Shown piece by piece: positions 30,578-31,148 of a stretch of 43,270 nt of DNA. The stretch covers positions 1 to 43,270 of IMG/VR virus record IMGVR_UViG_3300034069_000622; one strand, 5' to 3'. Origin of the DNA: a virus. The position numbers and the translations under genes are program-made. Under the pieces are notes generated by a model, which saw nothing but the letters and a program-made list of their open reading frames with translations, made no database searches and was not told the DNA's origin. Numbering within the stretch: the first letter of the stretch is position 1; every line of letters starts with the position of its first letter.

Positions 30578-30985
30578 CTACTCCGCCACCACGTCGATCG
30601 TGAGCCCGTCGTGGCCTTTGACCGATCCGGTCAGGTGCGCGCTCAGGAACCTAACTTTCTTGCCCGTGGTGTCGATGTAGCCGAGTCCCTTCAGATTGAC
30701 CTCCGGCCCCACGATTGCGATGTGGACTACAGCGTGCTTGCCTACGCCATCCAAAACCAAATGAACGTAGCCAAAATTCCAGCGCGGCTGCAGGTTGGCG
30801 CAATCCAGGTGCTTCGGGTCGATCTGCGTCGTCACATCAAAGTCGAGCTTTCGCGACAGAAAGTCTGTCAAACCTGCGCGCACTGAGCCCGCCGCGCGCA
30901 GCGTACCGGTGTCGGACGCTTGAATCGTGGCTGAGCCCCCGCGGATCAATCCGTTGGCCAGGACCTTAACTTTCTGTTCGATCAT
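30578..30985 (-). CDS. Hypothetical protein (135 aa, beta-rich)
   Basis: ATG preceded by AAGGAGG with 7-nt spacing. The start lies inside the end of the CsrA-like gene (20-nt overlap). Confidence 0.6.
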   Translation of the reverse strand: MIEQKVKVLANGLIRGGSATIQASDTGTLRAAGSVRAGLTDFLSRKLDFDVTTQIDPKHLDCANLQPRWNFGYVHLVLDGVGKHAVVHIAIVGPEVNLKGLGYIDTTGKKVRFLSAHLTGSVKGHDGLTIDVVAE

Positions 30986-31148
30986 CTTCGGCCTCCTTCA
31001 ATTTGGTGGTCAGGCTCTTTCTTTGGACGAGCTGGCCGTCGGCCTGGATGGCGAGCCTCACGAACTTGCCGCGCACGTCCGAGATCTGAATGAAGATATC
31101 AGTCCCGACGTGCAGCCACTCGCCTTTTTTGAGCGTCAGTACCAGCAT
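30966..31148 (-). CDS. CsrA/RsmA-like RNA-binding translational regulator homolog (60 aa)
   Basis: MLVLTLKKGEWLHVGTDIFIQISDVRGKFVRLAIQADGQLVQRKSL aligns without gaps to E. coli CsrA, [47 protein letters not shown]. It shares ML.LT..GE.L..G, V.G..VR and A, and has the same length class. The E. coli sequence is from memory. Confidence 0.6.
   Translation of the reverse strand: MLVLTLKKGEWLHVGTDIFIQISDVRGKFVRLAIQADGQLVQRKSLTTKLKEAEDDRTES

Follow-up and report, generated by a model that had tools for sequence, protein, structure and literature searches.

IMG/VR virus record IMGVR_UViG_3300034069_000622 was analysed over its full length of 43,270 nucleotides (nt), referred to here as the window. 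It holds a phage genome, about 43 kb long and transcribed almost entirely from the minus strand, which between the genes for the small (terS) and large (terL) terminase subunits carries, in this order, a CsrA-like gene (csrA), a gene here called X135 and a small open reading frame (ORF), ORF59. The subject of this work is the first of these, which runs from an ATG start to a TAA stop and encodes a protein of 60 amino acids, MLVLTLKKGEWLHVGTDIFIQISDVRGKFVRLAIQADGQLVQRKSLTTKLKEAEDDRTES. An initial annotation of the sequence had described it as a phage-encoded CsrA/RsmA-like protein.

Profile searches place the protein in the CsrA family. Against Pfam CsrA (PF02599) it scored 43.3 bits (E 3.6e-11), with residues 1-51 aligned to model positions 1-52 of 53, and so passes the curated gathering cut-off of 27 bits across the whole domain; its counterparts in two related phage contigs, L002 and L007, are also above this cut-off (49.3 bits, and 46.3 bits for L007). 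The PHROG 9500 ‘CsrA-like regulator’ profile was matched at E 2.2e-7 (31.8 bits), and a PDB sequence search returned CsrA/RsmA/RsmE entries only, with nine distinct sequences and a top E of 1.7e-4. The proposed CsrA/RsmA-like identity, for which the initial annotation had suggested a profile search as a check, is thus supported both by the significant Pfam match and by the predicted fold described below. The CsrA sequence pattern quoted in that annotation is found in the protein, and the residue changes it named were right (R6 to L, R7 to K, and VHREE to VQRKS). Its alignment to CsrA stood as a match, but not as one free of gaps over 45 residues: HMMER and MAFFT both require a one-residue deletion after residue 40. 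The deletion falls in the beta4-beta5 loop, and R43 of the window protein then aligns with the critical R44 of CsrA, which is thereby seen to be conserved.

A single-chain AlphaFold2 model, built from a 19-sequence alignment, had a mean pLDDT (predicted local distance difference test) of 78, with 87-92 across residues 1-30. It conforms to the CsrA-family chain fold, in which five short beta strands are followed by a C-terminal helix within about 55-75 amino acids. Its strands span residues 11-14, 18-26 and 29-36, and its helix spans 44-58; no strand was assigned in the single chain to residues 2-7 and 40-43, at the beta1 and beta5 positions. In the CsrA dimer, beta1 and beta5 pair with the partner chain, and the unassigned segments are compatible with a strand-exchanged dimer of this kind, without amounting to proof of one. 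The 15 best Foldseek matches in the PDB were all CsrA/RsmA/RsmE chains (probability 0.85-1.00, the first 13 at 1.00), and the match that came after them had a probability of 0.15. Template modelling (TM) scores on the length of the query were 0.46-0.61, the first 14 matches having 0.54-0.61, and they reached 0.82 with normalisation to truncated CsrA chains, over which the model core superposed with a root-mean-square deviation of 0.8-1.1 A in 36-38 core alignment columns. For the single chain, the comparison with CsrA structures that the initial annotation proposed for the homodimer therefore gave the CsrA/RsmA/RsmE fold and not a different one.

The residues retained by the protein include several of those most important for RNA binding by E. 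coli CsrA and RsmE. Alanine substitutions in E. coli CsrA have their strongest phenotypes at R44, V42, L2, I47, V40, L4, R6 and R7 (PMC6692469, citing Mercante 2006), and L4 and R44 are described as particularly critical (PMC7652899). In E. coli numbering, the window protein retains L2, L4, V42 (its V41) and R44 (its R43), and these residues are common to all three phage proteins, except that L007 has I at the V42 position. At the I47 position the window protein alone has a conservative replacement, L, as L002 has A and L007 has N; R7 is replaced by K, and the other changes relative to canonical CsrA include H43 to Q and E45 to K. Conservation clusters on the family-signature positions (M1, L2, V3, L4, G9, E10, G15, V25-K28, R31, A33, I34, A36 and R43). 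The GG dinucleotide of target RNAs is recognised chiefly via backbone atoms of beta5 and the beta4-beta5 loop, and the RNA specificity of CsrA comes mostly from backbone contacts, such that loss of a side chain need not abolish binding (PMC6692469). Judged by sequence, the three phage proteins retain the putative RNA-contact core and jointly lack the R6-E46 salt bridge, which is weighed below.

The csrA gene is tightly inserted into the terminase cluster (Table 1). Its ribosome-binding region, GAGGA at positions -13 to -9, lies within the acidic C-terminal codons of terS, and its start codon lies within GGAUG; L002 shows UAAAGGGAUG at the same junction. The ribosome-binding site of X135, GGAGG (as AAGGAGG), is inside the 3' end of csrA, and the L002 counterpart has a 17-nt overlap between csrA and the downstream gene, with a GAGGAG site. 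X135 and ORF59 are spaced by 2 nt, and the ORF59 stop overlaps the probable terL start (GTGA). This start is probably the GTG at 30399, as called in L006, a contig identical to the window, and at its longest the ORF would start at 30447. On the minus strand, nothing resembling a promoter or a terminator was found in the terS-to-terL interval. Because the genes are packed without gaps and have no promoter or terminator between them, the simplest reading of the sequence is that csrA shares a transcript with the terminase genes and that its translation is coupled to theirs. The earlier description of csrA as lying between terS and the genes next to terL and overlapping the next gene was confirmed, the overlap being 20 nt.

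Table 1. Features of the terminase cluster and of the remainder of the phage genome, with positions in the window.
Feature	Position	Strand	Evidence
Replication initiator and DnaB-type helicase	36.7-38.7 kb		
terS, terminase small subunit, 194 amino acids	31150..31734	-	Pfam Terminase_2, E 1.6e-29; phrog_51; 69% identical to L002 terS
terS stop/csrA start junction, TAG-G-ATG, one spacer base	31146..31152	-	Read from sequence
CsrA-like gene, 60 amino acids	30966..31148	-	Pfam CsrA; AlphaFold2/Foldseek; L002 and L007 have counterparts at this junction
csrA 3' end/X135 start overlap, 20 nt	30966..30985	-	Sequence
X135, 135 amino acids, predicted all-beta, no known family	30578..30985	-	
ORF59, small, Cys-rich, 59 amino acids from TTG (53 as called in L006)	30396..30575	-	
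terL, terminase large subunit	28939..30399	-	phrog_2, E 3.8e-19; 85% identical to L002 TerL from residue 13 on
Portal	24295..26130		
Major head protein	22087..23100		
Tail proteins, 2684-amino-acid protein, endolysin	Downstream of head genes		

Searches with the CsrA-like protein gave no match by tblastn in 50,697 phage records and no relatives in a peptide-pattern scan of IMG/VR, and a word-indexed search of 5.8 billion proteins recovered only the protein itself. An exhaustive HMMER search of 1.84 billion cluster representatives returned 28 matches at E<=1e-3 (top non-self E 1.1e-7), and the 18 that were retrieved are all CsrA-like. One of the matches, P0016, is the csrA counterpart in L002, a 42.9-kb Logan contig that was reached via its X135 homologue. 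L002 has the gene order of the window, with terS, csrA (58 amino acids), the X135 homologue X138, a small ORF and terL. At the amino acid level the two phages are 96% identical in the major capsid protein, 88% in the portal, 85% in TerL and 69% in TerS; identity is 52-54% between X135 and X138 and 45-47% between the CsrA-like proteins. L006, a 1.9-kb contig from a second sample, is 100% identical to the window.

More distant relatives were compared by way of TerL. In L007 (TerL 77% identical), terS is followed by a zinc-finger ORF, a 97-amino-acid CsrA-like protein, an HNH endonuclease and terL, and X135 is absent. L008 (69%) has a zinc-finger ORF and an unrelated 57-amino-acid ORF that resembles a helix-turn-helix (HTH) protein by eye and has no Pfam match, and in L009 (64%) terS overlaps terL. 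Cargo at the junction includes a Cys-rich ORF of 79-80 amino acids in L007 and L008 and an HNH_3+HTH endonuclease in L007; Xanthomonas phage CP2 has nothing annotated in the 140-nt gap between its terS and terL. In 80 IMG/VR relatives (TerL 50-64% identical), no CsrA-like ORF was present within up to 3.5 kb either side of terL. A CsrA-like ORF thus occurs in three of the 85 TerL relatives examined (the window, L002 and L007). The survey of related phages proposed in the initial annotation accordingly found counterparts at the terS/terL junction in L002 and L007 and none in the other 82. At 33 loci with a recognisable Terminase_2-type terS upstream (30 from IMG/VR, plus L002, L007 and L008), 16 had a terS-to-terL gap of at most 23 nt, and the other 17 a gap of 124-1507 nt. 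The terS/terL junction is a variable cargo hotspot, and the CsrA-like gene is cargo of a small subclade.

Many of the nearest homologues from the HMMER search (P0002-P0028) are single chains with two, six or seven tandem CsrA domains, for example P0004 (586 amino acids, six matched stretches), P0010 (569 amino acids, six) and P0028 (499 amino acids, seven). Chains with two domains could fold as covalent pseudo-dimers, and those with six or seven would be multivalent GGA binders.

Evolutionary rates were estimated between the window and L002 by the Nei-Gojobori method, with a bootstrap interval on dN/dS. The dS of csrA (0.77) is similar to that of terS (0.80), which argues for common descent of the gene in the two phages over separate acquisition. 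Its dN is roughly ten times the value for the structural genes, and dN/dS is 0.61 for the core (bootstrap interval 0.28-1.17) and 0.78 for the whole gene, with an unconstrained tail. As a proof of selection dN/dS was rejected as underpowered at this interval. By these estimates and by amino acid identity, the CsrA-like gene evolves much faster than its neighbours, in the manner of a host-interaction gene.

Taken together, we favour with moderate confidence a CsrA-type translational regulator that is accessory, expressed late, dimeric and RNA-binding and that is aimed at host mRNAs. The divergent csrA gene would be carried as an accessory (‘moron’) gene in the variable terS/terL hotspot, and its transcription and translational coupling with the terminase genes would have the product made late in infection. 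The protein would most likely form an interdigitated CsrA-type homodimer, in which two RNA-binding surfaces would be built from beta1 of one subunit and beta5 of its partner. The dimer may recognise GGA-type motifs that overlap Shine-Dalgarno sequences or lie close to them, and so alter the translation or stability of target mRNAs. Host transcripts, for instance those of genes for take-over, defence or physiology in one particular host, would be likelier targets than essential phage messages. Host-directed action is favoured because most relatives express their late genes and package DNA without csrA, because the gene lies in a cargo hotspot, and because it evolves like a host-interaction gene.

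Several observations weigh against this explanation. The protein widely misses the NCBIfam CsrA equivalog cut-offs (TIGR00202 / NF002469: 34.2 bits versus 73, and 29.3 versus 70.1). The R6-E46 salt bridge, called indispensable to both the structure and the activity of RsmE (PMC6692469, citing Heeb 2006, Schubert 2007), has lost both partners, with L6 and S45 (equivalent to E46) in the window protein, L and P in L002, and C and K in L007; among the nearest CsrA domains, R6 is present in 35 of 42 and E46 in 34 of the 38 that cover the position. The beta4-beta5 loop, whose backbone reads the GG, is one residue shorter in the window protein, the near-invariant P37 is D, and the C-terminal helix region is unconserved, being proline-rich in L002. 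The dN/dS interval of the core includes 1. On the side of the RNA, folds predicted for the regions where translation of csrA, X135, terL and terS starts contain no GGA loop that the window and L002 have in common. In an Rfam search of the whole window every family stayed below its gathering score, so that no described Csr/Rsm-type decoy RNA was detected, and neither a GGA-rich decoy small RNA of the CsrB/RsmY/RsmZ type nor a nearby FliW-type protein was found as a cognate antagonist. As to the host, the nearest isolates are discordant, since TerL is 38% identical to that of the Xanthomonas CP2 / Xylella group and the portal about 44% identical to that of Salmonella phage epsilon15, and the patterns used to look for prophages with a related portal protein gave none in GTDB species genomes or IMG/VR. 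Since the equivalog cut-offs are missed and the R6-E46 bridge is absent, the function of host CsrA is not to be assumed, and the sequence should not be annotated as its functional equivalent.

The favoured explanation can be set against known CsrA systems. The window protein resembles bacterial CsrA, RsmA and RsmE (1vpz, 2jpp, 1y00, 2bti) in size (60 versus 61-65 amino acids), in the N-terminus MLxLT..GE, in its full-length profile match and predicted chain fold, and in keeping L2, L4, V42 and R44. It differs in being about 28-38% identical to the solved chains and in being encoded in a phage late operon, not at a chromosomal locus. In phages, csrA was reported in 30 of 2517 genomes, including Burkholderia phages whose hosts lack the gene (PMC7366521, Sobrero and Valverde); many more phage csrA/rsmA genes were found in another study, which proposed repression of CRISPR-Cas by phage RsmA (PMC8450108, Campa et al.). 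Our tblastn search with E. coli CsrA recovered 88 phage-collection records at 45-100% identity. The canonical phage CsrA/RsmM proteins (PHROG 9500; Pseudomonas phages F116, phi297 and H66, Vibrio phage 219E41.2) are 45-90% identical to E. coli CsrA and share with the window protein a CsrA-family gene in a tailed phage and a presumed manipulation of post-transcriptional control. Against PHROG 9500, however, the window protein scores 31.8 bits and E. coli CsrA 120, and the csrA genes of F116, phi297 and 219E41.2 lie in the early/immunity-recombination region near cI-like repressors, whereas the window gene lies between terS and terL.

A second group of phage proteins, the ‘CsrA-like regulators’ of PHROG 8397, comprises those of Bcep22 (gp54), BcepIL02 and DC1, which are Lessievirus podoviruses of Burkholderia. 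The gp54 gene (NC_005262, L090, 31170..31364) lies in the late head module, between genes of the portal/scaffold region and the major head gene, in a phage whose host genus is reported to lack chromosomal csrA (PMC7366521). When aligned by the GE and APxxxxxxR motifs, gp54 has, like the window clade, L at the R6 equivalent and P at the E46 equivalent. In contrast, BLASTP finds no alignment between the two proteins, PHROG 8397 scores the window protein at 20.3 bits and gp54 at 110, the neighbours of gp54 are head genes and not terminase genes, and its loop has the canonical length. The shared loss of the bridge may reflect convergence in late-module phage CsrA-like proteins, and by these scores the window protein is best described as a putative outlier related to both PHROG families and a close member of neither. 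The initial annotation had called the position of the gene unusual; its terminase location does differ from those in F116, phi297 and 219E41.2, but the novelty was overstated, as phage-encoded CsrA/RsmA homologues are already catalogued and gp54 lies in a late head module.

Beyond phages, the plasmid pQBR103 encodes RsmQ, a mobile-element CsrA homologue shown experimentally to rewire host translation (PMC9928087). RsmQ would be the best functional analogy for a host-directed role, and differs in being plasmid-borne and close to host Rsm proteins; the window protein has no such similarity. RegA of phage T4, a small protein that binds the ribosome-binding regions of mRNAs and blocks their translation, is an early gene product acting on early phage mRNAs and may serve as an analogy only, its fold and family being unrelated to those of the window protein. 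Mobile-element homologues of CsrA are widespread, and the class, late-module ones included, is thus already described; the new element here is a strongly divergent lineage without the R6-E46 bridge, located in the terS/terL hotspot.

A CsrA-like ORF with the same kind of change was also observed in the metagenome contig Ga0307425_1001393 (L091, 3968..4162; MLVVTLRKDE...VLREK), which has L at position 6 and K at 46. It adjoins a repetitive 516-amino-acid ORF whose translation looks TPR-like by eye. No phage genes are among the ORFs listed over 3.6 kb of this contig, and the variant lacking the bridge may extend beyond phages.

Among the alternatives, the one that survives best, although we consider it unlikely, is a regulator internal to the phage that binds GGA motifs in its own operon, feeds back on the translation of csrA, X135, ORF59 and terL, and so sets the late dosage of TerL. 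The terS-csrA-X135-ORF59-terL chain is tightly coupled, and CsrA represses its own translation. Three GGA motifs lie at most 25 nt upstream of or at the csrA start in both the window and L002, GGAUG encloses the csrA start in each of the two, and AAGGAGG is the ribosome-binding site that follows. However, the GGAs upstream of csrA are a by-product of acidic GAC/GAG codons in the terS tail, and they are not consistently unpaired or looped in the predicted folds of the two phages. Moreover, 82 of the 85 relatives package DNA without a CsrA-like gene, many of them with terS abutting terL, and the gene order around csrA differs in L007. Over the whole window, GGA occurs 640 times on the sense strand and 520 times on the antisense strand, compared with 938+/-20 in dinucleotide shuffles, and ANGGA occurs 140 times on the sense strand compared with 200+/-13. 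GGA-type motifs are therefore not enriched: CANGGANG, ANGGA and GGA are all below the shuffle expectation on both strands. The deficit is probably due to biased codon usage and composition, not to CsrA sites being avoided. The earlier remark that many ribosome-binding sites of this genome contain GGA is true but uninformative, as the Shine-Dalgarno consensus itself contains GGA.

Less likely again is a neofunctionalised CsrA fold that, with the R6-E46 bridge gone and the GG-reading loop shortened, is no canonical GGA binder and acts by protein contacts, either in a module with X135 (compare CsrA-FliW and CsrA-CesT) or through mixed dimers that poison host CsrA. R6 and E46, kept in most of the nearest CsrA domains, are lost in all three phage proteins, and csrA and X135 overlap, are conserved as a pair in the window and L002, and each of them is fast-evolving (45% and 52% identity). 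Partnerships of CsrA with proteins are known from structures (5dmb, 5z38). On the other hand, L007 has a CsrA-like gene without X135, conservation of L2, L4, V42 and R44 would be needless for a purely protein-binding role, and RNA binding may survive the loss of side chains if specificity comes mostly from the backbone (PMC6692469). X135 itself resembles neither FliW nor CesT in sequence or in its low-confidence fold. It had no Pfam, NCBIfam or PADLOC match, and its best PHROG (E 0.45) and PDB sequence (E >= 0.21) hits are at chance level; the AlphaFold2 model was poor (pLDDT 60), with Foldseek matches that are not meaningful (TM <= 0.4). The sole homologue found is P0030 (X138) in L002, 52-54% identical and likewise directly after csrA, with no further relatives in IMG/VR, GTDB genomes or JGI metagenomes. 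X135 as a FliW- or CesT-like partner was accordingly rejected on Pfam, PDB sequence and fold grounds. ORF59, which follows it, has a CxxxC...CxxC pattern, no family match in library searches and no homology to the 71-amino-acid ORF at the same position in L002.

More speculatively, and in our view with little probability, the late-operon CsrA-like proteins of phages (the window clade and, independently, the Bcep22 type) could constitute a distinct functional class that has given up the bridge and altered the GG-reading loop. Such proteins would act unlike host CsrA, by a new RNA specificity, by a module with X135, or by entering the dimers of host CsrA as dominant-negative subunits and so poisoning them late in infection.

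Decay of a functionless passenger, in which an acquired csrA drifts in a recombination hotspot and stays open by chance and by the need for operon coupling, we place lower still. The whole-gene dN/dS of 0.78 and a core interval reaching 1.17 would fit such drift, as would the unconserved C-terminal region, the loss of the canonical R6, P37, E45 and E46, and the absence of csrA from most relatives. Nevertheless, intact ORFs with the exact family N-terminus (MLV-) persist in three lineages at a dS of about 0.8 or more, all three proteins exceed the Pfam threshold with conservation on family-signature positions, and a second sample yielded an identical copy. Simple decay is thus unlikely, though pairwise dN/dS alone cannot exclude it. 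Most improbable of all is a packaging accessory factor, a small beta-protein that binds DNA or terminase and aids pac-site recognition or terminase assembly, for which the terS/terL position is the sole point in favour: relatives with 50-70% identical TerL lack csrA, the same junction elsewhere holds unrelated cargo (a zinc-finger ORF, an HNH endonuclease, an HTH-like ORF), and we know of no CsrA-family member that binds DNA or terminase.

Other features of the genome were noted in passing. An ORF of 2684 amino acids (7001..15055, minus strand) takes up 19% of the 43-kb genome, has LPD22 (large polyvalent protein-associated domain 22) near its N-terminus as its sole Pfam match, and is presumably an ejected or virion polyvalent protein. 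A 99-amino-acid protein (32654..32953, minus strand) has an Xre/MbcA/ParS antitoxin C-terminal toxin-binding domain above cut-off (E 3.2e-7), is conserved in L002 at 54% identity, and may be a phage-borne antitoxin-like counter-defence gene. An ERF-family recombinase gene is divergent from the rest of the genome in both the window (42341..43102, plus strand) and L002 (1..657, minus strand), where it stands beside a Sipho_Gp157 gene. No integrase was found among the subset of ORFs that was scanned against family libraries, and ARAGORN found no tRNA.

CsrA/Rsm proteins control hundreds of bacterial genes, including those for motility, biofilm, virulence and CRISPR-Cas, and a phage copy is for this reason a compact means of reprogramming the host. 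The window gene opens no new category of system. It shows that a CsrA-like gene can occupy the terS/terL accessory hotspot and, as the operon context suggests, be made with the late genes, and that it can retain the putative RNA-contact core and discard a bridge held to be essential in the model proteins, a trait in common with Bcep22 gp54. If RNA binding is retained, the protein would show how much of CsrA is dispensable; if it is not, it would represent a new use of the fold.

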